Positions 1 to 26,483 of a stretch of DNA of 36,542 nucleotides are shown here, one piece after another. The DNA comes from Candidatus Falkowbacteria bacterium. GTDB lineage: Bacteria > Patescibacteriota > Patescibacteriia > Patescibacteriales > SZUA-104. Every line of letters starts with the position of its first letter. Within the stretch, counting starts at the first letter, position 1. The DNA lies in NCBI GenBank assembly GCA_027020105.1, contig JALUVW010000077.1, positions 1-36,542 on the forward strand. Reading direction: 5' to 3'. A program made the position numbers and the translations under genes. Below the pieces are notes generated by a model. The model was not told the origin of the DNA, did no database searches, and saw only the letters and a list, made by a program, of their open reading frames with translations.

Positions 1-3000
1 GTATCGTGCAGTTTTCCACGCAATTTCCGGAGGCTCCGCAAGCATCGCCCAAATTCGCGGTTGACGGGCATCTGCCGCTGCCGTCACTGCAAACAAAATA
101 ATCTCCCCACGGCTCCCACAATCCATTAGTGGTAACCGGCGGCCAAGGGTTCTCGCAAATAAACACCCACGCGTTGGCTTTGCCTGTATATTTCTCTTCT
201 CCGTCTTCGGCGCTGCCTGAAACATCCGCCGTAGCCGATATTACCGCCTTGTTGTCGGTAATGCCCTGTTGAGCCTCGTATAATTGTTCGTAATTATCCG
301 CCGAAAACGGACTATCCGGGTCAAGATCCACGACCGCGTCATTGTTTGAGTTCCAAAGCCAATCCCATTCGTAAACTCCGGCAACCTCGGACAAGCTTTG
401 TCCGTCGGCGGAAACCGCCCAAGCGGCAAACACCTTGTCTCTGTCTTTTATCGTGTCAAAGCTGTCATCTCCCGAATTGGCGTCATTCTCCTTTATGTCA
501 TCCTTTGTGGTTTTAAACAAATATGAATCGGGCGTAATGTTCACGTGGTCTATTTTGCAAATTCCGCTGTTCGGCGACTGTTCATCTATGGTGGTAAACG
601 ACCAAACGTATCCATAATATTCTTTTCCGTTAAAGGTTCTGTCAATTAAATCCACCGTCCCGCCCTCGCTAACAGTGAGGTTCGTGCCGTTAATATCGCG
701 CCAATCATCCGCCATGCCGATTCCTCTATAATTTAAAACCCCCTCGTTATTATCGTCATCCAAGTTGTTGTCGCCTTTGATAATCACATAATACGCGGTT
801 TTGGCGTCCAATAAATTTTTGGGAGAAAAAGTCAAAGTGGTGTTGCCGTCGGAATTCTGAACGCTGCTTACCGTTCCGGAAATGGCGCAGAAATTGTCCG
901 ACAAAGCTCTTGCGCCGGGAAATATCGGAGACAATATTTTCGCTATAATTCTTTTAATTCCCATCCACGCTTTATCGGCCACTCCCTTGTTGTTAACGGT
1001 TAAATATTCGGTGCCCGGCGGACATAGCCGCTCTCCGTAATTGCCCACCATAATCACATTGCCGTTAAAACTTGATACGTCCATTTTCTGGTTAAAATCA
1101 ACGGTAACCAAAGAGTTTCGGCAAACATTCGCGGCTCCGTTGTCCGGAGAAACGGTTTCAATTTTCGGGCCGGCGGGGCAATAAGTTTCGCCGGCGTCTC
1201 CTTCGCAGCCCACGTCGCAGCATACGTTATCGTCGCATAAATACTCCTCCGGAGCGCAATTCGCGCATAAACTGGCGTCGGCGTCCAAGCACCCCCCTGA
1301 TGCCGTTGAGCAGCAAACCGTTCCGCATTCCTCTTCTTCCGGGCCGCAAACGGTCGGGCAAAAAGTGTTGCCGGGAGGGCCTTCGCAAGCGGTCGGACAA
1401 CACGAAGAGTCGTCGCACAATTCATTGGGAGGAAGGCAGTCCGAGATCTTGTCTCGGCACACGCCGGCCGGATAATCGGCGTCATTCAATTCGCAATATT
1501 TTCCGCTTGTGCCTTCGCAGTTGCACGCCGCGTCGCTCAAAGCTTGGTCCGGCACCCCTCCCACTTCAATCCTGCATCCGGAACATTCGCCGAAACCCGA
1601 TCCGTCATCCGTGGTATCGCTGCCGCATGTCCCCGCGCAAACCAAGCCGGTGCAGCAATCGCGCGCGTCCTGGCCTATTTCACAACAACATTCGCAAGAA
1701 GCTTCGTCGGTCATCTCGCATCTTTCGGACAATGTGTTGCATACCGATCCGGCCAGACAAATGTCCTGATCCACTCCGCAAACCCCCTCCCCGTCGCCGT
1801 CGTTATCGTCAAAACAAACAAAGCCGCTGTCGCAAAGACTGCAGGTATCGGCGGTAACGGAATCAACGCACTTATCGCCGGAAGCCCTTATCCATCCGTC
1901 CGGACACGAAGCGCCGGTATTGATATGCCAAACATTATAAGTATTCAAGCCGTCATTGTATTCGGAACAATATTTAACAACGGTTTTTCCAAAAATATCT
2001 TGAGCGGTTGAGTTCAGGCTGCAACCCCCCTGCGTATTGTCAACGCATTTGTTTAAATTGAGATTATAAGCGCAGGAAGGAGCGGCGCACGCGCCCACGC
2101 CGTCGCAATCAGCGTCCGAACATCCGCCCATATCCACGGTTTCTCCCCCGGGGTAAGGCGAACATCGGCCGGGAGAGTTGGGGCAAAATTCAGTATCTTG
2201 GCATTGGTTTAAATTATAGCCGGAGCATGTGCTCGGCGCCTGACAGGTGCATGTGCCTGGATCGCAGATCAATCCCTGTCCGCAGCTGCCGTCGTCTTCG
2301 CATAAAGAAGTGGAATCATTCAAGTCGCAGCTATCGCCGACATTGCCTCCCGCGTCCGTGCTGAAATCCCACTCGTAAACCGAACTGGAAATATCCACAT
2401 AGCAATCGTCCGTCGTCGCTTCGCATCTTCCCTCCTTGTAGGTTCCGGGCGGACAGCATATTTGCGCTCCGCAGGCGTCATCAGAATTGTCTTGCTCGGT
2501 GCACAAGCCCACCGTAAAATTGATTCCGTTTCCCTCATCACCGCTTTGCGCGACTCTTACCGGACCGCTGACCGCGTTATTGTGAACGGTCGTGTCTATT
2601 CTTTGCGCGTCGCCATCGGGGCCCCAATAAGTTATCGCCGTTCCGCTTTGGTCGTTATTCAAATGAAACCTGACCAAACCGGTGGCTTGCTCCCCGAAAT
2701 ATTCTCCCCATAAAGATATGTCGCTGTTGTTAAGCCCCACCGTGGGCTGAATTTTGCATAAACTCGGTTTAAGGGACAAGCTTTCATCGTATTTAAAAGT
2801 ATTGTCAACGGTTGCCGTGGGAATAATTCCGCTTGAATCAATCGGCCCATCCCATCCTTGAACATCTATGACTATGTAATAATCGGTCAAATTAACCAAC
2901 CCCGGCGGCGCCTTGACTATAATTTGATTATCAGACCACAGGCTGTCGCCGCAAATATCCGGAAAGTCATAACTCGCCTCCACGCCGTCAACGGCGTCGC

Positions 3001-5272
3001 CAAGATTATCGTCAAAATAAACACGGTGAGTCGTTCCTATTTGATCCTTGGTGGCATTGCCGAATCCGCTGCCGTAAATAGTCACGTATTGGCCCTGACT
3101 TCCTTTAATCGGGCTAAAAGAAGTGATTTGCGGGCCGGTTTTCGGTTCCGGCTTCTTCGTGAACCGCAAAAAATTACTGTTCACGTCTATATTGTTTTGT
3201 TTAATCGCCGTAAAGGCGGTGGTTTTTCCCGTTTGCATATTCGGCACATCGGCCGTTCCCTCCGTATCGCCGTTAAATACCGAGTTTAAAGCGTTGATAT
3301 TGTCAACGGCGCTGCCAAATTTCGCCGTGGCGCCGTTTAAGCCTATGCCGTAATAAGTGACGGTATCGTTCATTGCGCCGGCGTCCGGGTCCAACAGGCA
3401 AATCCCCGGGCGTTCAATGCCGTTAACAACAAAATCAAAATCCGGTCCCCGTCCGTCCGCGCTCCGCGTGCTGTCTGAAAATCCGTTATCGGCCGTAACC
3501 GTAATCGTTGTTCCCGGTCCGAGACTTAAACCGTCGGGAACGACAACGACTATTTGGTTGTCGCTCCAGCTACCGGAACAATTCTCGTTTACGGTATCCG
3601 CCAAACTGGCGGTAAACTCATTTACGCCATCGTTAAACACCACCGAACCGCTTCCTTGAATATCGTTAAAATATCGCCCGCCAATAGTCACTAAATTGCC
3701 GCTCGCTCCGTTGGGAGTGCCGGTGTCGCAAGTGGTTCCGCAGTCGCTGTCGTCTCGGCACGGCACGTTATTGTCGTCGTCGCAAAATCCGCCCGAAGGT
3801 TCAACCCAATCAATAATCGGAGCGTTTTGGCAAAGGCAGCAACTTGACACGTCCGCGCCGTATCCGCTCGCGGAACAAGCGTCAAGATCGGAGCCGGCGG
3901 AAGAACAAAATCCGGAAGCGCACAGATCGTCGCTGCAGCTTGTCGCCGGCATATTTTCCGCGTCAATGGCGCACGCCGATCCTTCACAGGCCCCGCATTC
4001 ACCTCCGCAGTCAACGCCCTCTTCTCCGTCGGCCGTGTCTTGGACCCCGTTACAGCAATGCGCCGCCTTAACGGTAATCGTTTTGTTGTCGCCCGCGCTG
4101 CGGCTGTCAATATCATAAGCGGTGGCGGTTATCGTTACCGCGTCTCCCGGAGCGTAACCGCTCGCGTCCCATAAAGTATTGGCGCTAAACGGCGAGTCGC
4201 CGTCGGAATTGACGACGGTGTCAATGCTCGCGCCGTCAGCCGAAAACTCTATGCTGTCCACGCCGCTATCATCGGCGCCGTTCGCCAGTAATTCATTGTC
4301 GGGAACGGCGCATATTTGCCCGAGGCCGAGATTTACCGTGGGGTCTTCGCAATCAATCAAATCTCCCACATTAAACGTGATGGAGCAATCCGTTCCCGAG
4401 CCGGGGCAAGACAGCTGAATGTCGCCCACGCTTAAAATGCCGGCCGGACCGTCAACCGCCGTGACCGTTACTTGCTCTCCGGCGTTGAAACAATTGGTTG
4501 CTCCGCACAAATTGCTTCCGCAATCTCCGTCCGGCGTAAATATGATTCGTTTTCCGTCAACTTCCCTGGTCCCGGGAATAGGATCCCCGTCCCCGTTTGT
4601 TACGGTAAAATTCGTGTCATCAATAAAATTGGTATCGCCGACATACAAATTAAAAGAATACCTGATTTTTATGTTTCTGATCACGTTGACATCGCCGTCG
4701 TTGGGGGAGGTGGAGCTAACGTTAAATTCCGGAGGAAAATCGCAAGAATCGGCGCACCCGAAAGAACAACACACTTCGGTCGCGTCGCAAGTGTAGCTGC
4801 AATCGGTCCATGATTCGTTTACGCAGGTTTGCGTTCCCAGATTGGCGCAGCCGCAAGTCTTGACCGCGCCATTCTCGCATAACCCGCCGGTAGCGGTCAA
4901 TAATTTATTCAGGACAAATGTGGTGGCGCCGAAAGAAAGCAAAATTATCAATAATCCGATTATGGCGCCGGACAACACTTTTCTGGCTTTGTCGATTTTT
5001 TCCATATTGCCGGCGGCGGACATCCAAAGCCAGCCGGCGTATATCGTCAGTCCCAAAGCGATAATACCCAAAAAGCCCAAGGCCACTCTGATAATATTGG
5101 CCGCCAATATCCGCGGATCTTCGCTTCCCAGACCTATGGTATTGCCGATTTCATTCTGCGTCCCGCCCCAAAGCAGATTATCGGCGCTTTGCGCCAAAGC
5201 GAAATTAACCGCGGCGGACATGGCTGTTAACACGAAAAATATGATTATTAAATTTTTTGTTTTTTTCAACAT
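1..5272 (-). CDS. Giant cysteine-rich cell-surface protein, partial (C-terminus lies beyond the left edge). Signal peptide plus two-TM TrbC/VirB2-like pilin-type hairpin, then SbsA/Big_5-like Ig domains, a disintegrin-like Cys motif, three IPT/TIG-like domains, a ~440-aa very Cys-rich region and a further Ig-like domain.
   Basis: It is absent from the ORF track only because it has no stop in the window. Hand translation of the minus strand from ATG 5272 (MLKKTKNLIIIFFVLTAMSAAVNFALAQSADNLLWGGTQNEIGNTIGLGSEDPRILAANIIRVALGFLGIIALGLTIYAGWLWMSAAGNMEKIDKARKVLSGAIIGLLIILLSFG...) stays open for 1,757 codons down to position 2. Recognisable pieces: CCNGVQDTADGEEGVDCGGECGAC (~4050-3980); IPT-like GTPNGASGNLVTIGGRYFND...SWSDNQIVVVVPDGL (~3720-3500); SPIKGSQGQYVTIYGSGFG...LWSDNQIIVKAPPG (~3110-2900); a third IPT-like unit at ~2760-2480; 62 Cys in ~440 aa between ~2460 and ~1140; SbsA_Ig-like ETVSPDNGAANVCRNSLVTVDFNQKMDVSSF (~1175-1060). 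The short ORFs listed at 241-5312 are other-frame or antisense shadows. Confidence 0.85.
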   Translation of the reverse strand, partial: MLKKTKNLIIIFFVLTAMSAAVNFALAQSADNLLWGGTQNEIGNTIGLGSEDPRILAANIIRVALGFLGIIALGLTIYAGWLWMSAAGNMEKIDKARKVLSGAIIGLLIILLSFGATTFVLNKLLTATGGLCENGAVKTCGCANLGTQTCVNESWTDCSYTCDATEVCCSFGCADSCDFPPEFNVSSTSPNDGDVNVIRNIKIRYSFNLYVGDTNFIDDTNFTVTNGDGDPIPGTREVDGKRIIFTPDGDCGSNLCGATNCFNAGEQVTVTAVDGPAGILSVGDIQLSCPGSGTDCSITFNVGDLIDCEDPTVNLGLGQICAVPDNELLANGADDSGVDSIEFSADGASIDTVVNSDGDSPFSANTLWDASGYAPGDAVTITATAYDIDSRSAGDNKTITVKAAHCCNGVQDTADGEEGVDCGGECGACEGSACAIDAENMPATSCSDDLCASGFCSSAGSDLDACSASGYGADVSSCCLCQNAPIIDWVEPSGGFCDDDNNVPCRDDSDCGTTCDTGTPNGASGNLVTIGGRYFNDIQGSGSVVFNDGVNEFTASLADTVNENCSGSWSDNQIVVVVPDGLSLGPGTTITVTADNGFSDSTRSADGRGPDFDFVVNGIERPGICLLDPDAGAMNDTVTYYGIGLNGATAKFGSAVDNINALNSVFNGDTEGTADVPNMQTGKTTAFTAIKQNNIDVNSNFLRFTKKPEPKTGPQITSFSPIKGSQGQYVTIYGSGFGNATKDQIGTTHRVYFDDNLGDAVDGVEASYDFPDICGDSLWSDNQIIVKAPPGLVNLTDYYIVIDVQGWDGPIDSSGIIPTATVDNTFKYDESLSLKPSLCKIQPTVGLNNSDISLWGEYFGEQATGLVRFHLNNDQSGTAITYWGPDGDAQRIDTTVHNNAVSGPVRVAQSGDEGNGINFTVGLCTEQDNSDDACGAQICCPPGTYKEGRCEATTDDCYVDISSSVYEWDFSTDAGGNVGDSCDLNDSTSLCEDDGSCGQGLICDPGTCTCQAPSTCSGYNLNQCQDTEFCPNSPGRCSPYPGGETVDMGGCSDADCDGVGACAAPSCAYNLNLNKCVDNTQGGCSLNSTAQDIFGKTVVKYCSEYNDGLNTYNVWHINTGASCPDGWIRASGDKCVDSVTADTCSLCDSGFVCFDDNDGDGEGVCGVDQDICLAGSVCNTLSERCEMTDEASCECCCEIGQDARDCCTGLVCAGTCGSDTTDDGSGFGECSGCRIEVGGVPDQALSDAACNCEGTSGKYCELNDADYPAGVCRDKISDCLPPNELCDDSSCCPTACEGPPGNTFCPTVCGPEEEECGTVCCSTASGGCLDADASLCANCAPEEYLCDDNVCCDVGCEGDAGETYCPAGPKIETVSPDNGAANVCRNSLVTVDFNQKMDVSSFNGNVIMVGNYGERLCPPGTEYLTVNNKGVADKAWMGIKRIIAKILSPIFPGARALSDNFCAISGTVSSVQNSDGNTTLTFSPKNLLDAKTAYYVIIKGDNNLDDDNNEGVLNYRGIGMADDWRDINGTNLTVSEGGTVDLIDRTFNGKEYYGYVWSFTTIDEQSPNSGICKIDHVNITPDSYLFKTTKDDIKENDANSGDDSFDTIKDRDKVFAAWAVSADGQSLSEVAGVYEWDWLWNSNNDAVVDLDPDSPFSADNYEQLYEAQQGITDNKAVISATADVSGSAEDGEEKYTGKANAWVFICENPWPPVTTNGLWEPWGDYFVCSDGSGRCPSTANLGDACGASGNCVENCTI

Positions 5273-5280
5273 TTTAATTA

Positions 5281-5397
5281 AATCAAAATTTAAAAATCAA
5301 AAATCAAAATGACAATTTAAAGTATAAAATTTATACAGTTTAATAATTTTAAATTCCGCATTGTCATTTTCCATTTTGCTTTTTGGTTTTTACATTT
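5281..5397. repeat. AT-rich inverted-repeat element E1 (heptamer-built arms) between the two giant genes
   Basis: Left arm taaaaatcaaaaatcaaaatgacaat (5291-5316) pairs with right arm attgtcattttccattttgctttttggttttta (5360-5393). The ~43-nt loop is AT-rich. Confidence 0.8.
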
Positions 5398-8016
5398 TTA
5401 TGGGCATTCGCTCCCGGCCGTCAACACCTCTCCGCAACAAGAAGGAAAAGCTTCCGTGGCCGCGCAATTCGGTCCGGCGCTCGGCTTAAAACAGTTTTGG
5501 TATATGTCTTTAACGCCGGAACCGACTTGCGAACGATAACTGGTCGCGTCGGAAAGCATTGAATGGTTAATCCGCGCCACCGTATAATCAGGGTATCCGT
5601 CCAAAGGGGGCGTATCAACGTTTTCTTTGGTAATCCAATAGCCGATCGGTTTGTTGTTGAAATTTCTGATATTTATCAATTTATGCTCAACCTTATTGTC
5701 GCCGTTGGACACCGTCTTGCTGCCGGTTTTCAAACTGTCCGACATCATCACCTTGCTGAAAGAAACCAATACCGGCTCGTTAAGAGAAACCCCCGAATAA
5801 TTATGTTCCGGTGAAATAAGATTGATTTTCGGCGGAGCCAAATCTATCGCGTCGCTAATATAAAACGACCACCGAAAATTATCCCCTCCCGGCCCTCCGG
5901 TATTTTCATTATAAAACGACACGGGAGCGTCGGCTTCTCCGTTTCTGTTGCCGTCCAATGAGTTGGAGGCGGTATCGGCAATTCCTTCCAACGGATAATT
6001 CGCGAGAGGATAATTTACGCCGTCTGAGTTTTGGCAAGCGTAGGAGGTTCCGACACTCGCGCAATTATTGTACGGCGTCTTATAAGCGCAATCGCTGTCG
6101 CCGGCGCATACGTCCAGCCGAGCGGCGACCATATCCACTTTTAAATTGGCGTTCTCCGGCAGGCAGTAAATCTTTTCTCCGCACCCGTTTACTCCGCATT
6201 GGTTGTCGGAGACAAACTCAACCGTTTTATAATTGTTGGAAACCGTAAAGCTGCCGCGAACGCAGACATCCGAACCGCAGTCAAAAAATTCCGAACCCGT
6301 ACAATCGCCGCTTACGCATTTTACGGCTATATAATCCTGCAAACTCTCGGCGTCGCCCGAAACCGTCAAAGGATTTACGGCTTCATTAAAGTTGATTTGT
6401 ATAACGGAGTTTCTCGGCTGATCCTTCTTGTCGTTTACGATGGTCGTCACTTCCCTGTCAGTTCCGCCGGACATGGGCGTTATGTCAATGGCGTCCGTAT
6501 TGCTGGTCGCCAACACAATATTGTTTCCGGAGCTGCCGGCGACTTTGGCGGTCACGAAAATTGAGCTTCCGGAGGTGACAAAACTGCCAAGAAGAGGATT
6601 TTTAACCAAAACGCCGGTAATATTGGACGCGGTCGCGGCCGTGGTTCCGCCAATGGCGATGTCCTCTCCGAAAACATAGGTTATATCGCCCGCGGTCAAT
6701 GTGTCCGCTTTTTGCTCGGCGGTGATGTCAACATTCCAAGAATTGCCGGCGCCGTAAGCGCCGTCGCCGGCAACGGTTAAGGTAAAATAACCCGGGAAAG
6801 TTACGGACGATCCGTTAAACGCGGCGGAACCGAGCAACACGCTTCCTTTGCTTAATTGCGCGGTTGAACCGTCCGATAAAATCGTAACCGTTAAAATTCC
6901 GCTCTCTTGATTGCCGCTGTCGGCAACCGCCTCGGCGTCGTTCCAATCGGCTCCCGACGGATTTTTGCCAACGCTCGCGACAACGGCGGGAACATAAACG
7001 TTCGGCTGGCCAACCACTCTTATGACGCCGCTTGCCGCCACGGCGTCGGTTATCGCGCCAACTTCGTCTTGCTCGTTGTCGGGCACGGGGAAAACGCCGC
7101 CTTCTTTAACTTGCGGCGGAGTCAGGTCCACTTTATTGCTGACTTTAAACTGCCACTCCATATAGTCGGCCGAACAAGTGGAGAAAATGCCGTTATTCGC
7201 GCCGCTCTTATCTCTTTTTTCTATTTCATTGGTTAAATGAACCGTATACCAAATATGCTCCGACGGCGAACCCAAATATTCAGTCGGAATAAAGACAAAA
7301 GTTTTATTGTCATTGGTGGCCACATTCACTTCAAGAACGTTTCCGTCGCAAGGGGGGCCGCAAGCGTCGCCGGCCGCGGTCTTGTAAATTCTGACATTTT
7401 CCGGAATTATATATTCTCCGGCATCGCAAACGCCGTTATTGTTGCCGCCCGCGTCATCGCAAAGAGTTGTCGGGTCAACCTCTTCCTTAAAAGTAATGAT
7501 AATGGCGGTGTTTCTCGGGACTTCTTCCTGGTTCGGCTCCGGATAAACGCTCTCAACCGTGCAACTCCCCAAGGCGCCGAGCCCCGTGCCCGCGTCGGGC
7601 GGACCGGCTCCCGGCCCCGGACCGCCGACTCTGGTCGCTCCCAAAAACTTGCTTAAAATAAACGTAACGATGCCGAACGACAACAAAATAATGGCCAGCC
7701 CGATAACCGCGTTTCTTAAAACTTGCTTGGCTTTTGTTATTCGCGATTCTTCGCCCCCCGAAGTCATCCAAAGAAATCCGGCATACATTATCAGGCCGAC
7801 AGCGATAATACCCAAGAAACCGATAAACACTCTGATTATTTTGGCCGCCAATATTCGCGGATCTTCGCTTCCCAACCCTATGGTGTTGCCGACTTCGTTC
7901 TGCGTCCCGCCCCAGAGCAAATTGTCCGCGCCTTGCGCCAAAGCGAAATTAACCGCGACGGACATGGCTGTCAACACGAAAAATATGACAATTAAATTTT
8001 TTGTTTTTTTTAGCAT
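5398..8016 (-). CDS. Large surface protein (872 aa), paralog of the giant gene. It has the same signal peptide and pilin-type two-TM hairpin, a Gly/Pro linker, several SbsA/Big_5-like Ig domains and Cys-rich segments.
   Basis: ORF-track protein. The N-terminus MLKKTKNLIVIFFVLTAMSVAVNFALAQ...IIRVFIGFLGIIAVGLIMYAGFLWMTSGGEESRITKAKQVLRNAVIGLAIILLSFGIVTFIL is ~75-80% identical to the first ~125 aa of the 1-5272 protein. Big_5-like segments: VESVYPEPNQEEVPRNTAIIITFKEEVDPTTL, DLTPPQV, DQPRNSVIQINFNEAVNPLTV, DLAPPKINLISPEHNYSGVSLNEPVLVSFSKVMMSDSL. Confidence 0.85.
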   Translation of the reverse strand: MLKKTKNLIVIFFVLTAMSVAVNFALAQGADNLLWGGTQNEVGNTIGLGSEDPRILAAKIIRVFIGFLGIIAVGLIMYAGFLWMTSGGEESRITKAKQVLRNAVIGLAIILLSFGIVTFILSKFLGATRVGGPGPGAGPPDAGTGLGALGSCTVESVYPEPNQEEVPRNTAIIITFKEEVDPTTLCDDAGGNNNGVCDAGEYIIPENVRIYKTAAGDACGPPCDGNVLEVNVATNDNKTFVFIPTEYLGSPSEHIWYTVHLTNEIEKRDKSGANNGIFSTCSADYMEWQFKVSNKVDLTPPQVKEGGVFPVPDNEQDEVGAITDAVAASGVIRVVGQPNVYVPAVVASVGKNPSGADWNDAEAVADSGNQESGILTVTILSDGSTAQLSKGSVLLGSAAFNGSSVTFPGYFTLTVAGDGAYGAGNSWNVDITAEQKADTLTAGDITYVFGEDIAIGGTTAATASNITGVLVKNPLLGSFVTSGSSIFVTAKVAGSSGNNIVLATSNTDAIDITPMSGGTDREVTTIVNDKKDQPRNSVIQINFNEAVNPLTVSGDAESLQDYIAVKCVSGDCTGSEFFDCGSDVCVRGSFTVSNNYKTVEFVSDNQCGVNGCGEKIYCLPENANLKVDMVAARLDVCAGDSDCAYKTPYNNCASVGTSYACQNSDGVNYPLANYPLEGIADTASNSLDGNRNGEADAPVSFYNENTGGPGGDNFRWSFYISDAIDLAPPKINLISPEHNYSGVSLNEPVLVSFSKVMMSDSLKTGSKTVSNGDNKVEHKLINIRNFNNKPIGYWITKENVDTPPLDGYPDYTVARINHSMLSDATSYRSQVGSGVKDIYQNCFKPSAGPNCAATEAFPSCCGEVLTAGSECP

Positions 8017-8035
8017 TGAATTTTTAGCATTAAAA

Positions 8036-8232
8036 TTAAAATGTAAATAGCAAAAATCAAAATGACAGTGTAAAATTTAAAATTAATTTTAGAAAATATT
8101 ACATAATCGGATTGCCGGCGCTTCTGATAAGCTTATAGATAAGCTATATTAAACGCGCTAAGGACCGGTAAAATAATTTTGCGTTTTTAATTGTCATTTT
8201 CCATTTTGATATTTAATTTTTAAATTTACATT
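8036..8232. repeat. AT-rich inverted-repeat element E2 (~200 bp, MITE-like), homologous to E6 in the opposite orientation
   Basis: Arms are caaaaatcaaaatgacagtg (8051-8070) and aattgtcattttccattttgatatt (8189-8213). The first ~60 nt and last ~45 nt align at ~90-95% with the reverse complement of 14995-15196. Confidence 0.8.
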
Positions 8233-8259
8233 GACTAATCCACAGTTTTGCTATTTAAT
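8231..8259 (+). promoter_or_regulatory. Candidate sigma70-type promoter for rel
   Basis: TTGACT (8231-8236), 17-nt spacer, TTTAAT (8254-8259), about 75 nt upstream of ATG 8336. Confidence 0.3.
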
Positions 8260-8335
8260 GATATTATACCATAAATAAAACCAAGCCATCAAATTCGGCG
8301 ATACGGAGTTTGCGAGTTAAGCGGCCATAGATTCT

Positions 8336-9805
8336 ATGACTATTGACCAAATCATAAATAAAGTGAAAAAAAACAACCCAAAAGCGGATTTGGACTTGTT
8401 AAGGCTGGCCTATGACTTCGCGCAAAAGGCGCATAAGGGACAAAAAAGGCAGAACGGAGAACCGTACATACAGCACTCGCTGCATACCGCCTTCACTTTG
8501 GCGCAAATAAAAACCGATTTAAACACTATAATAGCGGGTCTTCTTCATGATGTTCCCGAAGACACGAAATACACGCTCGCGGATATAGAAAAAAACTTCG
8601 GCAAGGAGGTGGCCGGCTTGGTCAAGGGAATAACCAAACTAAGCAAAATCAAATACCGCGGAGTGGAAAGGTACGTGGAATCTTTAAAAAAAATGTTTCT
8701 GGCCATGGCCAACGACTTAAGGGTGATTCTTATTAAATTCGCGGACCGACTGCATAATTTAAGAACGCTTGACGCCCTCCCCCCGGAAAAACAGCAAAGA
8801 ATAGCCAGGGAAACGCTGGACATCTACGCTCCCATTGCCGGCCTTCTCGGTATCTGGCGCTTTAAGTGGCAAATGGAGGACTTGTGTTTTAAATATCTTT
8901 ATCCGGATGATTTTAAAAAAATAGAATATAAATACGAAGTGGAAAAAAAAGTTGAACGCAATCAATATATTCAAGGAATAAAAAATATCTTAAGCAAGGA
9001 ACTGAAAAAAGAAGGCATAGAACACACGATAACCGGCCGATTCAAGCACTTATACAGTATTTACAAAAAAATGCAGGCAAAAGACAGGAAATTTGACGAA
9101 ATTTACGATGTGTTCGCCTTGCGCGTTGTCGTAAAAAGCATACCCGATTGCTATAAAACGCTTGGCATAATCCACACGCTTTGGAAGCCCAAGCCGAACA
9201 GATTTAAGGATTATATCGCCTTGCCGAAGCCGAACGGCTACCGTTCTTTGCATACCACCGTCTATGGTCCGAACGGCAAAGCGACGGAGTTCCAAATCAG
9301 AACCGAAGAAATGAACCAAGAAGCCTTATACGGTATTGCCGCCCATTGGTATTATAAGGAAGAAGGAGGGAGCTATGAAAAACACAAATCAAAACAACCG
9401 CGCTGGGTCAAGGAAATTATGGACCTGCAGCTTAACGCGAAAAACTCGCATGACTTTATCAAGCGGGTTAAGTTTGACGTTTTTCACGACCGCATTTTCG
9501 TGTTTTCTCCCAAAGGCGATGTTTATGATTTGCCCGAAGGCGCCACTCCGGTTGATTTCGCTTACGCCGTGCACACCGACATCGGCAACCAGTGTTCGCG
9601 CGCCTTAATCAACGATAAAATATCAACTCTGGACGCGAAACTGAAAAGCGGCGAAGTGGTTGAAATTATTACCGACAAAAACCGCAAATACCCCAATCGC
9701 GACTGGCTTAAATTCGTTAAAACCCAGAAAGCCCGCAACAAAATAAAACAATTTTCAAAAATCTCCAAATTGGAAACAATCAAAAAACTGCTTCCGAAAA
9801 TATAA
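8336..9805 (+). CDS. rel: Bifunctional (p)ppGpp synthetase/hydrolase of the RelA/SpoT (RSH) family. Short form: HD + synthetase + TGS, with no C-terminal ZFD/ACT-RRM region.
   Basis: HD motif LLHDVPEDT; synthetase motifs YRSLHTTV and EFQIRTEEMNQEALYGIAAHWYYKE; TGS-like IFVFSPKGDVYDLPEGATPVDFAYAVHTDIG. The protein is 489 aa and ends ~60 aa after the TGS domain. Confidence 0.9.
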   Translation: MTIDQIINKVKKNNPKADLDLLRLAYDFAQKAHKGQKRQNGEPYIQHSLHTAFTLAQIKTDLNTIIAGLLHDVPEDTKYTLADIEKNFGKEVAGLVKGITKLSKIKYRGVERYVESLKKMFLAMANDLRVILIKFADRLHNLRTLDALPPEKQQRIARETLDIYAPIAGLLGIWRFKWQMEDLCFKYLYPDDFKKIEYKYEVEKKVERNQYIQGIKNILSKELKKEGIEHTITGRFKHLYSIYKKMQAKDRKFDEIYDVFALRVVVKSIPDCYKTLGIIHTLWKPKPNRFKDYIALPKPNGYRSLHTTVYGPNGKATEFQIRTEEMNQEALYGIAAHWYYKEEGGSYEKHKSKQPRWVKEIMDLQLNAKNSHDFIKRVKFDVFHDRIFVFSPKGDVYDLPEGATPVDFAYAVHTDIGNQCSRALINDKISTLDAKLKSGEVVEIITDKNRKYPNRDWLKFVKTQKARNKIKQFSKISKLETIKKLLPKI

Positions 9806-10090
9806 ACAAACCACTTAACCCCTGTTTTCTCCTATTATTCTCCGCAGCTCCTTTACTTTGGCGCCGCTTACTTTCATTTTTTTCCGTTTTTTATTCCGCC
9901 TTTTTTCATATCTCTTCTCTATTTCCTCCTGTCGTTCGTTCAAATTTTGTTTATTCATAGAAAGATGATATAATTAACATAATGCGAATCCGCGAATTAA
10001 CTTATTCCGGCATTCGCAAATTCGTGGAATTCGCGCAGAATTCGTATGTTCGTATTATAATTTTATCATCAATCCAGTCAATAAACAATA

Positions 10091-10780
10091 ATGAAAAAAC
10101 ATTGGTATAAAAAATGGTGGGGAATAATATTGATTACGGTTCTAACGATATTTTTGATAGTTTTAACCGCTTCCGGTTTTTATGTTTACCGCGCCGCCAA
10201 ACGCATAAACGACAACCGATTAAGCCCGCCGGAAAAAATATCAATAGATTATAATAAAATAGACAAACAAACGCGCGCGAAAATTGAAGGCGCGGACAAC
10301 TACTGGATAGGCGCGGCAAACCCCGAGATAACCATTGTTGAATTCGGCGATTTCGCCTGCCACCATACCAAGAAATCGTTTCCGAAGATACGGGAAATCG
10401 GGACAAAGTACAAAAATAATGTTAAAATAATATTCAGGGATATGCCCTTGCAGGAAAATTCCTTGGAATTGTCGCTGGCCGGCCGCTGCGCCGGAGAACA
10501 AGGGCTGTTTTGGCCGATGTATGACAAGCTGTTCCAAAACCAAGGCGTAAGCGGCGCGGACGAACTCATTGAAACGGCAAATCAAATCGGCGCGGACACG
10601 GCCAGATTCGCCGACTGCTTAAAGAGCCAAAAATACATTAAACAAATTCAAAAAAATTTTTCAGACGGAGAAGATCTCGGAGTAAGAGGAACGCCGACAT
10701 GGTTTGTCAACGGCGTTAAAATAGAAGGAGATGTCCCGCTTAGTGTTTGGGAAAATATTATAAACGAATTATTAAAATGA
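10091..10780 (+). CDS. Membrane-anchored DsbA-family thioredoxin-fold protein with a monothiol CHHT active site
   Basis: N-terminal TM helix WWGIILITVLTIFLIVLTASGFYVY. Thioredoxin_4-like core ITIVEFGDFACHHTKKSFP...AGRCAGEQGLFWPMYDKLFQNQ...GVRGTPTWFVNG. The DNA reads ttc gcc tgc cac cat acc, so the usual CxxC is CxxT. Confidence 0.8.
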   Translation: MKKHWYKKWWGIILITVLTIFLIVLTASGFYVYRAAKRINDNRLSPPEKISIDYNKIDKQTRAKIEGADNYWIGAANPEITIVEFGDFACHHTKKSFPKIREIGTKYKNNVKIIFRDMPLQENSLELSLAGRCAGEQGLFWPMYDKLFQNQGVSGADELIETANQIGADTARFADCLKSQKYIKQIQKNFSDGEDLGVRGTPTWFVNGVKIEGDVPLSVWENIINELLK

Positions 10781-10782
10781 CA

Positions 10783-10897
10783 AAAAACTCAAAATGCAAA
10801 GCTCAAAACGCAAAGCTACAGTTAAAAACTAAGAACTATGCGATTTTAAGATTTAAATTGCGGTTTTGAGTTTTGAGTTTTGAGCTTTGAGTTTTAC
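10783..10897. repeat. AT-rich inverted-repeat element E3 (aaaactc-type heptamers), same family as E8
   Basis: Left arm aaaactcaaaatgcaaagctcaaaacgcaaagctacag pairs with right arm gcggttttgagttttgagttttgagctttgagtttt. Confidence 0.8.
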
Positions 10898-10906
10898 TAT
10901 AAAATT

Positions 10907-11461
10907 ATGTATCAAATAAGAGTACACGGCCGGGGCGGGCAAGGAGTCGTCACCGCCGCCGAGCTAATCGCCATCGCCGCTTTTTACGACGGGAAAGTAT
11001 CGCAAGCGTTCCCCTTTTTCGGCGTGGAAAGAACCGGCGCCCCGATTGAATCTTACGCCCGCATTGACGACAAATTTATCAGAACGCGCGAACAAGTTCA
11101 CGCGCCAGATATTTTAATCGTGCAAGACTCCACCTTGCTTGGAGTGACGGATGTGGCAAGGGGAACCAGTAAAAAAACAATAGCCATAGTCAATTCAGCC
11201 AAGGAAAAAGATAAATTGAATATTGACTTGCCGAAAGAAAACATCTTCGTGATTGACGCCACCAAAATCGCCTTGGACAAAATCGGAAAAAATATAGTTA
11301 ACACCACTATTTTGGGGGCTTTCGCCCGCGCCACCGGATTAGTGAGTTTAAATTCGTTAAAACTTGCCATTAAAGAAAAATTCAAGGAAAAGGGCGACAA
11401 AATAATCAATAAAAATATTGAAGCGGTGGAGGTAGCATACAAATCTTCCGCCGAGCTTTAA
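10907..11461 (+). CDS. porG: Pyruvate/2-oxoacid:ferredoxin oxidoreductase, gamma subunit
   Basis: MYQIRVHGRGGQGVVTAAELIAIAAFYDGK... is a typical gamma-subunit N-terminus. ATG 10907 is preferred over the track's TTG 10880, which lies inside repeat E3. Confidence 0.85.
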   Translation: MYQIRVHGRGGQGVVTAAELIAIAAFYDGKVSQAFPFFGVERTGAPIESYARIDDKFIRTREQVHAPDILIVQDSTLLGVTDVARGTSKKTIAIVNSAKEKDKLNIDLPKENIFVIDATKIALDKIGKNIVNTTILGAFARATGLVSLNSLKLAIKEKFKEKGDKIINKNIEAVEVAYKSSAEL

Positions 11462-11474
11462 CATTATATAAACC

Positions 11475-11562
11475 TCTACCGATCTTTAGCTCGCCTTCGC
11501 CAGGTTTTAACCTGCCGAACAGCGGCTAAAGCCGCCCGAACCCTGGCCTGAAGGCCGGTAGA
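11475..11562. repeat. GC-rich palindromic element G1 (ggctaaagccgcc / cgaaccctggcct family)
   Basis: The outer arms pair: tctaccg...gccttcgccaggtt with aaccctggcctgaaggccggtaga. The 26-nt block cgaaccctggcctgaaggccggtaga recurs at 29075-29100 with one mismatch. Confidence 0.7.
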
Positions 11563-11577
11563 ATACAAATTTTACTT

Positions 11578-11847
11578 ATGAAAATAAATATCACGGCCAA
11601 GCCGGGATCAACCCGCAACAACAAAACCGGCGGTTGGCGAACATTTAAGCCAAAAACCGATTTAGACAAATGCATAAGTTGCGGCACTTGCGCCAAAGTC
11701 TGCCCGGAAGGTTGTATTGAAATGAAAAAAATCGCAAAATACGAACAGCTGAAACCGAAAACCGACTATAACTACTGCAAGGGTTGCGGCGTTTGCGCCG
11801 CCGAATGCCCGGTTAAGGCGATTGTTATGGAACTGGATAAAAAATAA
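11578..11847 (+). CDS. porD: PFOR delta subunit (2x[4Fe-4S] ferredoxin)
   Basis: Two cluster motifs: CISCGTCAKVCP and CKGCGVCAAECP. The protein is 89 aa and lies between porG and porA. Confidence 0.85.
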   Translation: MKINITAKPGSTRNNKTGGWRTFKPKTDLDKCISCGTCAKVCPEGCIEMKKIAKYEQLKPKTDYNYCKGCGVCAAECPVKAIVMELDKK

Positions 11848-11851
11848 TTAA

Positions 11852-11966
11852 ATTAAAATGTAAAAATCAAAAATCAAAATGACAATGCAAAATTTAAAAT
11901 TATTAAACTTTAAAAATTTTACACTTTAAATTGTCATTTTGATTTTTGATATTTAATTTTTAAATT
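11852..11966. repeat. AT-rich inverted-repeat element E4 between porD and porA
   Basis: Left arm aaaatgtaaaaatcaaaaatcaaaatgacaatg pairs with right arm aaattgtcattttgatttttgatatttaattttta. Confidence 0.8.
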
Positions 11967-11971
11967 ATTTT

Positions 11972-13159
11972 ATGAATAACAAAAATCAACAAATCCTTGA
12001 GGGTTCCAGGGCGATAGCTTTAACCATTAACAACATTGGGCCGGCTGTCATTTCCGCCTACCCGATCACCCCGCAAACCCATATCGTGGAGGACTTGGCC
12101 AAATTCAAGGCGGACGGAGACGCCGATTACGAATACGCGCGGGCGGAAAGCGAATTCGCGGCGGCCTCTATTGTGGAGGGAGCGAGCGCCGCCGGCGCGC
12201 GCGTCTATACCGCGACCAGTTCGCAAGGACTGCTTTTAATGGCGGAGGTATTGTTTAATATCGCCGGTATGCGCTTGCCGATCGTGGTGACCTGCGCCAA
12301 CCGCGGCGTTTCCGCGCCGATTACGATTTGGAACGACCAGCAAGACGCGATGACCATCCGCGACGCCGGCTGGATACAAATGTTCGCCGAAAACCATCAA
12401 GAAGCGGTTGACCAGCATATTATGGCCTACAAAATCGCCGAGCAAACGAATCTGCCGGTTATGGTCAATATTGACGGCTTTGTTTTAACGCATTCTTACG
12501 AACCGGTTATTATTCCCACCAGAGCGCAAATCAAAAAATACCTGCCGGATTATAAACCTAAAAAGGGACAATATTTGGACCCGGCCAATCCGGTTACCCT
12601 CGGCGCCTTCGCCCGACCCCAGCATTATATGGAAATCCGCCAAGACCTGCATAATGACCTGATGTCCAGTCTCAATTTAATTAACAAAGAGTATATTAAA
12701 TATAGAAAAACAATAAAAACAATGAAGTCCGACATCGGGTGCCCGATGTCGGACTTCGGAGCGGAAAATAACGGCTTAGTTGAATACTACGGCCCCAAAA
12801 AGCCTAAAATCATCTTAGTGGCGATGGGCTCGGTTATCGGAACGATAAAGGAAGTGGCGGATAAAACAAAAGGCGTCGGCGCGCTAAAAATAAAGACTTA
12901 CCGCCCGTTCCCCGAAGACGCGATTTTCAATATTTTAAAAAAGGCCAAATACGTGGCCGTTTTGGACAAATCCATATCGCTGGGGCATATCGGGCCGTTG
13001 GCTTCCGACATTAAATCGGCAATGCAGGGGAAAATCAAGGCTAAAATCCAAAGCTTTATAGTCGGATTGGGAGGACGGGATATTACGAAGGAAATGATTG
13101 GGGGAATTGTTAGGGAAGTTAAGAAAGGGGATGGTGGGGTGAAATTTATCGGGAAATAG
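11972..13159 (+). CDS. porA: PFOR alpha subunit
   Basis: 395 aa. AVISAYPITPQTHIVEDLA...YTATSSQGLLLMAEVLFNIAGMRLPIVV is typical of porA/korA alpha subunits. Confidence 0.9.
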   Translation: MNNKNQQILEGSRAIALTINNIGPAVISAYPITPQTHIVEDLAKFKADGDADYEYARAESEFAAASIVEGASAAGARVYTATSSQGLLLMAEVLFNIAGMRLPIVVTCANRGVSAPITIWNDQQDAMTIRDAGWIQMFAENHQEAVDQHIMAYKIAEQTNLPVMVNIDGFVLTHSYEPVIIPTRAQIKKYLPDYKPKKGQYLDPANPVTLGAFARPQHYMEIRQDLHNDLMSSLNLINKEYIKYRKTIKTMKSDIGCPMSDFGAENNGLVEYYGPKKPKIILVAMGSVIGTIKEVADKTKGVGALKIKTYRPFPEDAIFNILKKAKYVAVLDKSISLGHIGPLASDIKSAMQGKIKAKIQSFIVGLGGRDITKEMIGGIVREVKKGDGGVKFIGK

Positions 13160-13188
13160 AAAGATTTATGAATTAAGATTTATGATTT

Positions 13189-13317
13189 ATGAATAATGGA
13201 AAAATAAAATCATTTACTGATATTAAAGCATGGCAAAAGGGATATCACCCCGACGGCTCCATGCTTCGCGTGGAGCCGTCAAGGGCTTTAAAAAAATTCT
13301 TAAATCATAATTCGTAA
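13189..13317 (+). pseudogene. Remnant of a four-helix-bundle (23S rRNA intervening-sequence-type) protein gene, interrupted by a GC hairpin
   Basis: Translation is MNNGKIKSFTDIKAWQKGYH|PDGSMLRVEPS|RALKKFLNHNS. The first 20 aa match the family's characteristic N-terminus (F-x-D-L/I-x-x-W-Q-K). The middle segment is the hairpin gacggctcca...tggagccgtc. The remnant is 42 codons, against ~120 aa for intact members. Confidence 0.55.
13252..13280. repeat. GC hairpin G2 (GACGGCTCCA-N9-TGGAGCCGTC), upstream flank of the small pilin-type gene
   Basis: 10-bp perfect stem. It is related to the copy at 14101-14154 and shares the GCGTGGAG box with the 51-bp element at 15821-15871 and 30831-30881. Confidence 0.75.
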
Positions 13318-13328
13318 ATCCTAAATCT

Positions 13329-14069
13329 ATGAAAAAAATCCCTAAAATTATAGTATCAACATTCTTAACAATCTTCATCCTCCAAATGATAGGTCTAATA
13401 GTCTTATTGTCCGTTCCCGCGCAAGCGGCTGATGTGAAATTTAAACCTCAAATTGAAGTTCCCGGCTTGGAAAAAGGGCTTAAGGGCAGTAAAGAAGACG
13501 GGTATATAATTGAATCAACCACGATTGGCGAATACATTAAGGCCATCTATAAATACGCCATCGGCGTTGTCGGCATTTTGGCCGCGGTTGTGTTGATGAT
13601 CGGCGGAATCGTCTGGCTCACGGCCGGCGGAAACCAGACCAGAATCGGCGAAGCCAAGGCGTGGATAGGCGCGTCCCTGACCGGCCTGATTATCGCTTTA
13701 ACTTCGTATATGATTTTATGGACGGTTAATCCGGCGCTGGTGCGATTTAAGCCGATAAAAGTGGCGACGGTAACGGAACTAAAAAATGGATGCTGTGAAC
13801 TAAATAACGGAAAAGCGATGAATTCAACAGACACGGACTGCCCGGAAGACGTGGGAGTCTTCAACGACGGTAAAGTGGCAAGCGCCGACGGAAGCGCTTG
13901 CGTTAACAAAGAAACGGTGGTGGACTTAAAAGGATCCGGGCCCGGATGCTGCATCAAGCCCGGACTTTTCGGATATAATTGCGACTATGTCTCTTCTCAA
14001 GATGATTGCGACGATGGATATGAATTCCTTCTTGGCGTAAAATGTGAAGAAATTGATAAATGCCAATAA
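13329..14069 (+). CDS. Small TrbC/VirB2-like (CPR T4SS-pilin-type) protein with a Cys-rich C-terminal domain
   Basis: Signal/TM segment KIIVSTFLTIFILQMIGLIVLLSVPAQA, then IGEYIKAIYKYAIGVVGILAAVVLMIGGIVWLTAGGNQTRIGEAKAWIGASLTGLIIALTSYMILWTVNPALV (TM, GG loop, EAK, TM, INP-LV-like end). A ~100-aa tail with 12 Cys follows. Confidence 0.8.
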   Translation: MKKIPKIIVSTFLTIFILQMIGLIVLLSVPAQAADVKFKPQIEVPGLEKGLKGSKEDGYIIESTTIGEYIKAIYKYAIGVVGILAAVVLMIGGIVWLTAGGNQTRIGEAKAWIGASLTGLIIALTSYMILWTVNPALVRFKPIKVATVTELKNGCCELNNGKAMNSTDTDCPEDVGVFNDGKVASADGSACVNKETVVDLKGSGPGCCIKPGLFGYNCDYVSSQDDCDDGYEFLLGVKCEEIDKCQ

Positions 14070-14100
14070 CCCTGTTTGTTATTTAAAATTATAAAACTCA

Positions 14101-14154
14101 CGACGGATCCATGCTGCGCGTGGAGCCATAGCGCAAAGCGTGGAGCCGTCAAAG
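14101..14154. repeat. GC hairpin G3 (partially duplicated copy of G2), downstream flank of the small pilin-type gene
   Basis: cgacggatccatgctgcgcgtggagcc + atagcgcaaa + gcgtggagccgtcaaag, in the same orientation as G2. Confidence 0.7.
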
Positions 14155-14207
14155 TTGACAAAAAGTTAATCTTTAGTTAATCTTTAGTTAAACTTTAGTT
14201 AAAATTA
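14155..14207 (+). promoter_or_regulatory. Promoter of the first toxin-antitoxin operon, overlapped by four tandem 11-nt repeats (candidate operator)
   Basis: TTGACA (14155-14160), 17-nt spacer, TAATCT (14178-14183). Tandem repeats agttaatcttt / agttaatcttt / agttaaacttt / agttaaaatta span 14164-14207. Confidence 0.55.
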
Positions 14208-14224
14208 ATTAATCTTAAAAATAT

Positions 14225-14440
14225 ATGGAAAATATTATTAACTTAAAAAATTTAAGGGAAAATATGAGCGATTACGCCAAAAAAATCGCGCAAGGACAAA
14301 CTTTCATTGTTTTTAAACAGTCAAAACCGCTGTTTAAAATTTCTCCGGTGGACGAAGAAAGCCGATGGGAAGAAGTAATTGATTTTACTAAAATAAAAAA
14401 AGGAGGAGTTGATATTGATGAAGTGCTGTCCCGCCTGTAA
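14225..14440 (+). CDS. Type II antitoxin, Phd/YefM-like
   Basis: 71 aa. MENIINLKNLRENMSDYAKKIAQGQTFIVFKQSKPLFKISPV resembles Phd/YefM N-terminal domains. It lies directly upstream of a RelE/ParE-like gene. Confidence 0.6.
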   Translation: MENIINLKNLRENMSDYAKKIAQGQTFIVFKQSKPLFKISPVDEESRWEEVIDFTKIKKGGVDIDEVLSRL

Positions 14441-14490
14441 ATTATTCACTTCGTGGATCCCGAGTACTCGCTAACTTGCGAATTATTAAT

Positions 14491-14733
14491 ATGGACAAAA
14501 TATCAAAGGCCCTGAAAAAATTGACTGCTGAAGAGAAAAAAAGAATTAAAATAATTCTTATAAAATTGAAAAAAAACTCTCTTTCCGATTTTGACATTAA
14601 AAAATTAAAAGGGCATAGCGGTATTTACCGGATAAAAAAAGGAAAAATAAGAATTATATATAAAATTGATAAAGACGGAAATAAACGACTCTTAACGATT
14701 GAACGCCGAACCGATAATACTTACAATTTTTAA
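14491..14733 (+). CDS. Type II toxin, RelE/ParE family
   Basis: KKLKGHSGIYRIKKGKIRIIYKIDKDGNKRLLTIERRTDNTY matches the RelE/ParE core pattern (KL-G-x-YR-R-G-YR-IY...R). ATG 14491 is preferred to the track's TTG 14476. Confidence 0.7.
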   Translation: MDKISKALKKLTAEEKKRIKIILIKLKKNSLSDFDIKKLKGHSGIYRIKKGKIRIIYKIDKDGNKRLLTIERRTDNTYNF

Positions 14734-14776
14734 TTAAAATCCCCCGGCCCCCTTTAATAAATGGTGATAAAACGAT

Positions 14777-14992
14777 ATGATTTACTTCACCAAATACGCG
14801 GAAAAAAAATTTGATATACTGAATAAACACAAGGTTTATTTTACGCGCGAACAAGTGGAAGATGCCGTGAAGCTGCCCGACAAACTGGAGAAAAAAGGCA
14901 AATACTTGGCGGCGCGGAAGGATGGAGTGAAGGTGGTTTATATAATAGAAAATGAAATTATAAAAATTATAACCTTTTTTCCTGTAAAATAA
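14777..14992 (+). CDS. DUF4258-like small protein (putative toxin partner of DUF2283)
   Basis: 71 aa. YFTKYAEKKFDILNKHKVYFTREQVEDAV...VKVVYIIENEIIKIITFFPV fits the DUF4258 layout. Confidence 0.5.
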   Translation: MIYFTKYAEKKFDILNKHKVYFTREQVEDAVKLPDKLEKKGKYLAARKDGVKVVYIIENEIIKIITFFPVK

Positions 14993-14994
14993 TG

Positions 14995-15196
14995 GAAAAA
15001 TCAAAAATCAAAATGGAAAATGACAATTAAAAATGCAAAATTATTTTATCGGTTTAAAATATTTTAATATATCTTACCGTATGAGCCGCATTATTTAAGT
15101 AAAACAGGTAATCCAATTGCAATATTCTCTAAAATTAATTTTAAAATTTTACATTGTTATTTTGATTTTTGATTTTTACATTTTGATTTTTATTTT
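14995..15196. repeat. AT-rich inverted-repeat element E6 (~200 bp), inverted homolog of E2, inserted between the DUF4258 and DUF2283 genes
   Basis: Arms are aaaaatcaaaaatcaaaatggaaaatgacaatt and acattgttattttgatttttgatttttacattttgattttt. The ends align with the reverse complement of E2. Confidence 0.8.
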
Positions 15197-26474: not shown

Positions 26475-26483
26475 AAATACAAA

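Follow-up and report, generated by a model that had tools for sequence, protein, structure and literature searches.

Two large genes lie head to tail on the minus strand at the start of contig JALUVW010000077.1 from a Candidatus Falkowbacteria bacterium, the whole 36,542-nucleotide (nt) stretch of which is here called the window. Their products, A and B, share a membrane-anchoring N-terminus and then part ways. The locus thus raises the question of how two neighbouring genes come to be nearly identical at one end and unlike at the other. An original prediction had offered two answers: that gene conversion or recombination keeps the anchor homogeneous, or that the export and anchor module stays fixed while different ectodomains are exchanged on it like cassettes, so that the surface repertoire would vary. 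The evidence presented below makes it probable that A and B are an ancient inherited pair of modular VirB2-like pilins, the 5' modules of which have been subject to gene conversion while the ectodomains (the heads) were kept separate.

The gene pair and its shared pilin module

1..5272, minus strand, running off the window edge: gene A, from its translation; 1757 of its 2004 codons lie inside the window
5398..8016, minus strand: gene B, 872 amino acids (aa); the pilin module is joined to a beta-rich ectodomain of 744 aa, in which there are two Big_5 domains
4889..5272, minus strand: pilin module of A, covering codons 1-128; after the signal peptide come a short outer segment and a membrane hairpin of two helices
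7633..8016, minus strand: pilin module of B, codons 1-128; PF18895 match, with helices at residues 53-85 and 90-127/129 in the AlphaFold2 (AF2) model

The tandem arrangement is as had been predicted, with B coming first and A starting 125 nt later, after the spacer 5273-5397. The full-length A of 2004 aa was read from an independent assembly of the source organism (L001, ENA ERZ27262676 k141_417824, positions 3063-9077), which shows a single difference from the window in 8334 overlapping positions. A contig from another sample, the ends of which adjoin both 5' repeats, shows two differences in 2755 positions. An assembly artefact can therefore be ruled out as the source of the duplicated 5' end; assemblers do, on the other hand, tend to break contigs at these repeats.

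The expected likeness of the N-termini is confirmed by BLASTP, with 97/128 identities (76%) over residues 1-128 (E = 7e-58) and 55 of the first 60 residues the same, and so are the long identical runs of DNA, exact runs of 15-25 nt being found in the shared 5' part. In a repeat search, 5021-5273 matches 7765-8017 over 253 nt at 86% identity. Past the second membrane helix the similarity is lost as abruptly as had been described, BLASTP recovering only weak Big_5-type similarities beyond residue 128. The ectodomains are indeed unequal in length, although the figure of more than 1,600 aa given earlier for A reflected its truncation at the window edge: the full lengths are 1876 aa in A and 744 aa in B.

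The module constitutes the first 6–15% of the 872- and 2004-aa proteins. It consists of a Sec-type signal peptide of about 28 residues, with the n-region MLKKTK and an ALA-Q cleavage-type motif, about 35 outer residues, and a hairpin with the basic loop TSGGEESRITKAKQVLRN. The AF2 model of the module alone shows the signal-peptide helix, a poorly ordered segment and two long helices with a predicted local distance difference test score (pLDDT) above 90. Taken by itself, the B module matches the Pfam family PF18895 (T4SS_pilin; T4SS, type IV secretion system) at 31.0 bits against a gathering cut-off of 26.6, and all 64 of the aligned modules and small pilins, the A module included, match this family at E <= 0.01, with 14 of the 64 also matching TrbC/VirB2. 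With the full-length proteins as queries, the score of B falls to 22.5 bits and no match of A is listed at E <= 0.01, and the NCBIfam matches of the module, to a pilin-like conjugal transfer family, are sub-threshold. In the established topology of VirB2/TraA both termini are outside and the loop is inside; since the MLKKTK n-region, the ALA-Q motif and the basic loop fit this arrangement, both ectodomains, i.e., everything past helix 2, would be extracellular.

The nearest stand-alone relatives of the module are pilins of about 130 aa with up to 53–59% identity. A word-indexed search with the 129-aa module returned only such small pilins and missed the query's own protein, and was replaced by an exhaustive phmmer search, in which the module is seen to head proteins of many lengths and architectures across Patescibacteria and to occur in 2-17 tandem copies in some of them. 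Four patescibacterial proteins (P0257, P0245, P0275 and P0281) carry 10-17 tandem modules, one example being 1775 aa long with 17 matched stretches.

Beyond the module, the head of B is almost all beta-strand and contains two immunoglobulin (Ig)-like Big_5 domains (Pfam, AF2), while that of A combines Big_5, TIG and fn3 domains with long Cys-rich stretches (Pfam). Neither head matches the other's family at 1e-5 in blastp. Foldseek searches with the full-length B model (mean pLDDT 74) returned generic Ig-like matches only (LdtMt2 BIg domains, CopC, cadherins), pointing to no specific function. A recent duplication of the whole gene was also considered and ruled out, because the two heads have no sequence relationship and are both of ancient origin.

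Conservation of the pair and constancy of the heads

The closest genome record is the metagenome-assembled genome (MAG) of Candidatus Falkowbacteria SZUA-104 (locus L008; F104 in the trees below, in which W_A and W_B denote A and B of the window), with a B protein 80% identical to that of the source organism. The B family as a whole comprises 529 matches, the best 120 of which are nearly all full-length, 43–80% identical and annotated with PF18895 and Big_5, and a scan of species-representative genomes found relatives of B in 490 genomes. Among the 80 best loci, both genes could be delimited in tandem in 63, and these are the 63 genomes on which the following comparisons are based.

In all of them a B of 830-1013 aa is followed by a gene starting with the pilin module, which, where complete, is usually 1400-3470 aa long. 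The head of B aligns with that of the source organism over essentially its full length in 63/63 genomes (31–79% identity). The head at the A position likewise aligns with the source A head in 63/63 (29–79%), over most of its length in most genomes and over a smaller part where A is truncated or has diverged strongly. No cross-matches between the two head types are seen at 1e-5. In the loci inspected the order relA / B / A / TSP3_bac is maintained, with relA/spoT lying divergently upstream, as it also does in the window, and TSP3_bac downstream. Between the source organism and SZUA-104 the heads have a synonymous divergence (dS) of about 1.0-1.1 and a ratio of nonsynonymous to synonymous divergence (dN/dS) of about 0.12, with no 150-codon window near neutrality and none near or above a ratio of 1. 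Thus, the tandem pair is ancient, has been inherited vertically, and has heads that are under purifying selection.

These observations bear directly on the proposal that a fixed export and anchor module receives exchangeable heads in a cassette or antigenic-variation system. Such a system would account for the abruptness of the boundary between shared and unshared sequence, and the many protein lengths and architectures fronted by the pilin module across Patescibacteria speak in its favour. Against this, all 63 genomes have one and the same B-type head and, behind it, one and the same A-type head, and the alignments extend over most of each head or the whole of it; the low dN/dS with no diversifying windows is not that of a variable surface repertoire; a repeat search of the window found no silent cassettes or extra copies of the heads; and the arrangement is identical in three independent assemblies or samples. 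The comparison of related genomes that had been suggested as a check of the cassette reading thus returned a single conserved orthologous pair, and because this pair is kept throughout, the reading is refuted at the depth sampled, leaving it next to no probability.

Two variations on the arrangement may be recorded. In some lineages (L088, L021, L030, L055, L059, L062 and L077) a gene of about 345-360 aa follows B instead of A, and in L088 this gene (12810-13859) is recA. In L006, a more distant relative, a 129-aa PF05635 gene (23S rRNA intervening-sequence protein) stands directly upstream of both B and A (6623-7012 and 9727-10116), and the 3' flanks of the two copies are near-identical. In that locus, duplication or conversion has therefore also involved sequence upstream of the two paralogs.

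Gene conversion of the 5' tract in the source lineage

5021..5272, minus strand: recently converted 5' tract in A, nt 1-252 of the gene, with a core (nt 1 to about 180) that is 90% identical to B; from site patterns, maximum chi-square and neighbour-joining (NJ) trees
7765..8016, minus strand: recently converted 5' tract in B, partner of 5021-5272

If the heads have been inherited separately, the likeness of the modules has to be accounted for on its own terms. Divergence between A and B is far from uniform along the alignment, nucleotide identity falling from about 90% in nt 1-189 to about 60% in nt 190-384 and being random beyond, whereas orthologs are 86% identical over nt 1-189 and 83–84% over nt 190-384. 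By the Nei-Gojobori method the paralogs have a dS of 0.42 and a dN of 0.035 in codons 1-63 as against a dS of about 2.7 (saturated) and a dN of 0.37 in codons 64-128, so that synonymous divergence within the anchor is low in its 5' part only. Orthologs from the source organism and SZUA-104 have a dS of 0.66-0.69 and a dN of about 0.05 in codons 1-63, so that in this tract the paralogs are closer to each other than to their own orthologs.

Site patterns were read from an alignment of six sequences, namely A and B of the source genome, SZUA-104 and the locus L005. Sites that split all three B genes from all three A genes number 0 before nt 177 and 16 in nt 190-384, while at nt 13, 14, 42, 78, 81, 150 and 174 A and B of one genome carry the same base and the genomes differ. 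Maximum chi-square breakpoints fall at nt 252 in the source organism and at nt 189 in SZUA-104 (both p < 0.001), with none in L005. NJ trees of the two parts of the module conflict accordingly. In the N region W_A and W_B cluster together at bootstrap 0.90, a clade of W_A, W_B, F104_A, F104_B and L005_A that leaves out L005_B is recovered at 0.97, and separate A and B clades receive <= 0.01. In the hairpin region the A clade and the B clade each receive 0.97, with ortholog pairs supported at 0.94-1.0. Neither in L005 nor in L006 is the N region homogenised between A and B.

The prediction that conversion or recombination keeps the anchor homogeneous thus stands for nt 1 to about 180-250, i.e., for the signal peptide and what lies between it and the first membrane helix only; the hairpin part, with its 60% identity and separate clades, has not been converted recently. 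In mechanistic terms, the two 5' modules constitute direct repeats 2744 nt apart and serve as substrates for non-reciprocal homologous recombination, i.e., gene conversion. On the simplest reading, an A-type 5' end probably overwrote that of B in the common ancestor of the source organism and SZUA-104, with further exchange in each lineage afterwards. The hairpin-coding part and the heads retained separate histories. A scan of metagenome contigs with an exact 24-mer common to both 5' tracts returned only the already known SZUA-104-like contig.

It might be asked whether recombination need be invoked at all, as strong purifying selection, whether it acts on the signal peptide, on the 5' structure of the mRNA or on the initiation of translation, could by itself keep the first 180 nt alike. 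The very low dN of codons 1-63 is what such selection would produce; moreover, the same AT-rich leader repeat precedes both genes and the export route is probably common to A and B. Yet when genomes are compared, no part of the module is less conserved than the N region (36–38% identity as against 56–59% for the hairpin), so that selection alone is insufficient; the synonymous sites are alike too; A and B of one genome have lineage-specific substitutions in common and form the cluster at 0.90; and the unhomogenised N regions of L005 and L006 are at odds with a general constraint. The conflicting trees largely refute this explanation, which must now be considered very improbable.

Gene conversion of the 5' tract, in contrast, makes this a clean case of partial conversion, in which a leader and anchor segment of 180-250 nt has been homogenised and the adjoining domains keep their orthologous histories. 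Trees and orthology calls made from the N-termini of such proteins will consequently mislead.

Concerted evolution across the clade

The source genome and SZUA-104 are the extremes of a more general pattern, with N-region identities between A and B of 92% and 89% as against a median of 50%. In 62/63 genomes A and B are more alike within the genome than between genomes: for the N region the identities are 0.51 within and 0.36 between, and for the hairpin 0.68 and 0.56. Between genomes, A is no more similar to A than it is to B. Within-genome identity stays flat as genomes diverge, whereas cross-genome paralog identity falls along with ortholog identity; as a result, the within-genome excess is approximately zero for the closest pairs of genomes and grows with their divergence. 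This pattern is the signature of slow, episodic concerted evolution. More recent events are visible in L018 and L019, where the hairpin has a proportion of synonymous differences (pS) of 0.22-0.25 and a nucleotide identity of 87–88%, and in L026, L036 and L064, where pS is low in the segment before the hairpin. Across the clade, episodic conversion of differing sub-segments probably keeps the modules of one genome more alike than those of different genomes.

Here too a different emphasis may be placed, namely that the modules are chiefly co-adapted to the same lineage-specific partner, be it the small major pilins, the assembly platform or each other, with conversion only occasional. The excess in 62 of the 63 genomes is seen at the amino-acid level while synonymous sites are saturated in most of them. 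Patescibacteria also possess the arrays of small VirB2-like pilins that could supply such a partner (PMC12102498), and these are essential in one cultivated species (PMC10633639). On the other hand, the recent signal is plainly at the DNA level in the source organism, L008, L018/L019 and L026, and the source genome offers a further point of comparison:

13329..14069, plus strand: third pilin-module protein, 246 aa; PF18895 match and a Cys-rich tail

This protein is 38% identical to B over 55 aa and has not been homogenised with either A or B. Therefore, recombination dependent on proximity fits better than a compatibility constraint acting genome-wide, and co-adaptation as the main cause is improbable, if somewhat less so than selection alone.

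Several points nevertheless weigh against the preferred reading of A and B as gene-converted, modular VirB2-like pilins. The dS estimates derive from only about 43 synonymous sites, and no recombinant molecules were directly observed. Synonymous sites of the module are saturated in most genomes (median pS 0.66), and since these genomes show the excess at the amino-acid level only, part of it could reflect co-adaptation to a shared partner or lineage-specific composition. As for the module itself, Foldseek against the PDB returned generic helical hairpins only, none at E <= 0.001, and a profile search of PDB sequences gave no match to VirB2/TraA, so that the VirB2-like assignment rests on the hidden Markov model (HMM) matches. 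Furthermore, no T4SS genes (VirB4, VirB6) were found near the pair when the larger open reading frames (ORFs) of the window were scanned and read.

Functional considerations and comparison with known systems

Patescibacteria live attached to other microbes, and the means of attachment are largely unknown outside a few cultivated Saccharibacteria. A and B are most readily understood as cell-surface or adhesion proteins of such an episymbiotic cell, and they furnish concrete candidates for host-contact proteins, possibly as modular subunits of a T4SS pilus. The pilin module would either anchor the heads in the membrane or insert them into a VirB2-type filament of small pilins; in both cases the heads would be displayed on the cell surface and might mediate contact.

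The more specific proposal, that A and B are adhesin-bearing minor subunits of a patescibacterial VirB2-type pilus, is attractive but doubtful. Patescibacteria have abundant VirB2-like pilins and no recognised T4SS adhesin, PrgB-like adhesins having been sought and not found (PMC12102498), and pilin subunits are essential in the cultivated Saccharibacterium Ca. S. epibionticum (PMC10633639). Were the proposal true, it would supply the adhesin that surveys of patescibacterial T4SS did not find, and the concerted evolution of the modules would reflect the need to fit the same filament or assembly platform. However, the genes called in the 4.6-kb extension beyond the window edge carry no T4SS Pfam annotation, and no T4SS gene occurs within +/-10 kb in L088 and L089; the absence of T4SS genes near the pair in the three loci inspected leaves the pilus-subunit role unsupported. 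Heads this large could hardly be accommodated along a filament shaft, which weighs against the filament option.

The comparison with VirB2-like T4SS pilins (PF18895 / PF04956 TrbC) is accordingly a mixed one. They share with A and B a signal peptide and two membrane helices joined by a short basic loop, but are stand-alone proteins of about 100-140 aa rather than of 872 and 2004 aa. Those described are small and often form arrays near virB4, with a mean identity within arrays of 25% and a maximum of 54% (PMC12102498); the A/B pair is not beside T4SS genes, and its modules reach 76% through conversion. In overall design, a parallel is provided by the modular type IV pilins PilB and PilC of Streptococcus sanguinis, in which a small pilin carrier is joined by a short linker to a bulky and probably adhesive module (PMC8179133): there, too, a pilin module is fused to a bulky head, and there are two such proteins per organism. 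Type IV pilins, however, have a class III signal peptide cleaved by prepilin peptidase and a single N-terminal helix, whereas A and B have a Sec-type signal peptide and a VirB2-type helical hairpin, with neither a type IV pilin Pfam match nor a class III signal peptide. As signal peptide and pilin superfamily differ, the resemblance is one of design only. The PrgB-type adhesins of Gram-positive conjugative T4SS are, like A and B, large surface proteins rich in Ig-like domains, in a monoderm-type envelope that is also equipped with an MPF-FATA-class T4SS; they have no sequence relationship to A and B, which in turn are devoid of an LPXTG wall anchor and of linkage to a T4SS locus.

With respect to the mode of evolution, it is a classical finding that tandem paralogs undergo partial gene conversion. 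Domain-restricted concerted evolution of this kind is known from the variable lipoprotein families of mycoplasmas, with their conserved 5' ends, and from the neisserial opa genes. As in A and B, homogenised 5' portions lie beside divergent remainders, and the paralogs of one genome cluster together in the tract. The divergent parts of those genes vary between strains in phase or antigenic variation, whereas those of A and B are stable orthologs under purifying selection. Proteins of the A/B type fall in existing Pfam families and are automatically annotated as "pilin" or "Ig-like domain-containing". In the literature searched, no description appears to exist of a conserved protein pair in which VirB2-type pilin modules carry giant ectodomains, nor of the clade-wide concerted evolution of these modules.

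Dispersed repeats and other features of the locus

5273..5397, spacer between B and A: taken up completely by a single copy of a dispersed palindromic repeat, rich in AT, with TGTCATTTTGATTTTTG and its complement as core
8029..8227, 5' leader of B: repeat arms at 8029-8090 and 8164-8226 around a unique segment of about 75 nt
8263..8292, minus strand: best sigma-70-like promoter match upstream of B; TTGATG, an 18-nt spacer and TG-TATAAT, in surroundings conserved in L008

An AT-rich hairpin had been predicted to sit exactly at the junction of the two genes. The element is present there, but it is dispersed through the intergenic regions of the genome rather than specific to the junction. Its core TGTCATTTTGATTTTTG has 18 matches in the window where 0.55 would be expected, each of them in an intergenic position or at the end of a gene, and inverted pairs of arms occur in at least five spacers, among them 5273-5397, 8029-8227, 11846-11970 and 26475-26695, with several copies in 14985-15540 and variants at 10782-10903 and 16545-16652. 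As an RNA, the spacer 5273-5397 folds at -18.8 kcal/mol (z = -1.8), a modest gain over shuffled sequence. In SZUA-104, B and A are separated by a plain spacer of 58 nt and the leader of B is short, both being devoid of the repeat, and relative to that locus the arms and unique segment of 8029-8227 look like an insertion. Of 87 loci searched for the exact core, three contained it: L001 and L002, both from the source organism, and L013, with one site. An Rfam scan assigned no family to the repeat, a tRNA being its sole match in the window. As the hairpin is a dispersed repeat missing from SZUA-104, it is not part of the paralog system but a lineage-specific element resembling repetitive extragenic palindromic (REP) sequences or miniature inverted-repeat transposable elements (MITEs). 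A junction-specific terminator or regulator was considered and ruled out on the same grounds, the nearest relative doing without it.

The consensus match at 8263-8292 is a plausible promoter of B. Fourteen nt upstream of the B start there is a duplicate of 'ATGCTAAAAA' (8017-8035 / 7995-8016), which creates a 6-codon out-of-frame mini-ORF overlapping the start codon. Both genes open with runs of A7-A8 (ATGCTAAAAAAAAC in B and ATGTTGAAAAAAAC in A). The G+C fraction (GC) is 0.51-0.54 in the ectodomain-coding stretches 1001-5000 and 6001-8000, as against 0.33-0.50 in most of the window; given the great age of both genes in the clade, amino-acid composition (Gly, Ala, Asp, Cys) is a likelier cause of this than a recent transfer. 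A gene for a DsbA-like oxidoreductase at 10091-10780 is compatible with disulfide-rich exported proteins and is noted as context only.

The third pilin-module protein lies within an interruption (13329-15540) of the PFOR cluster (10880-16546), in which GC falls to 0.33 and which also holds several AT-rich repeat copies and, at 14225-15406, four small ORFs of 69-85 aa. A different, 51-nt palindromic element (…GAGACTAAGTCTCCAATTGGAGACTTAGTCTC…) is found at 15821-15871 and 30821-30871 as exact reverse complements. The first copy lies inside the gene for the PFOR beta subunit (15560-16546), where it is read in frame as …KETKSPIGDLVSTPK…, and the second just upstream of a U32 peptidase gene. The latter gene (29314-30813) contains two of the three copies of a GC-rich palindrome, CGTAGAGACGAGGCACTGCCTCGTCTCTACGGCG (27789-27822, 29754-29787 and 29799-29832), its protein having a duplicated 'RDEALPRL', and these look like in-frame palindromic insertions in coding sequence. 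Variants of an AT-rich repeat also occur in its coding sequence at 30043-30122, yielding the protein stretch 'KLQIPNKFKIQNPNVQNY', which suggests that genes, too, are targets for insertion of the dispersed repeats of the source genome. Three copies of another repeat of 39 nt, GCTAAAGCCGCCCGAACCCTGGCCTGAAGGCCGGTAGAA, occur in or near intergenic regions at 11525-11563, 29063-29101 and 34927-34965, with 69–100% identity.

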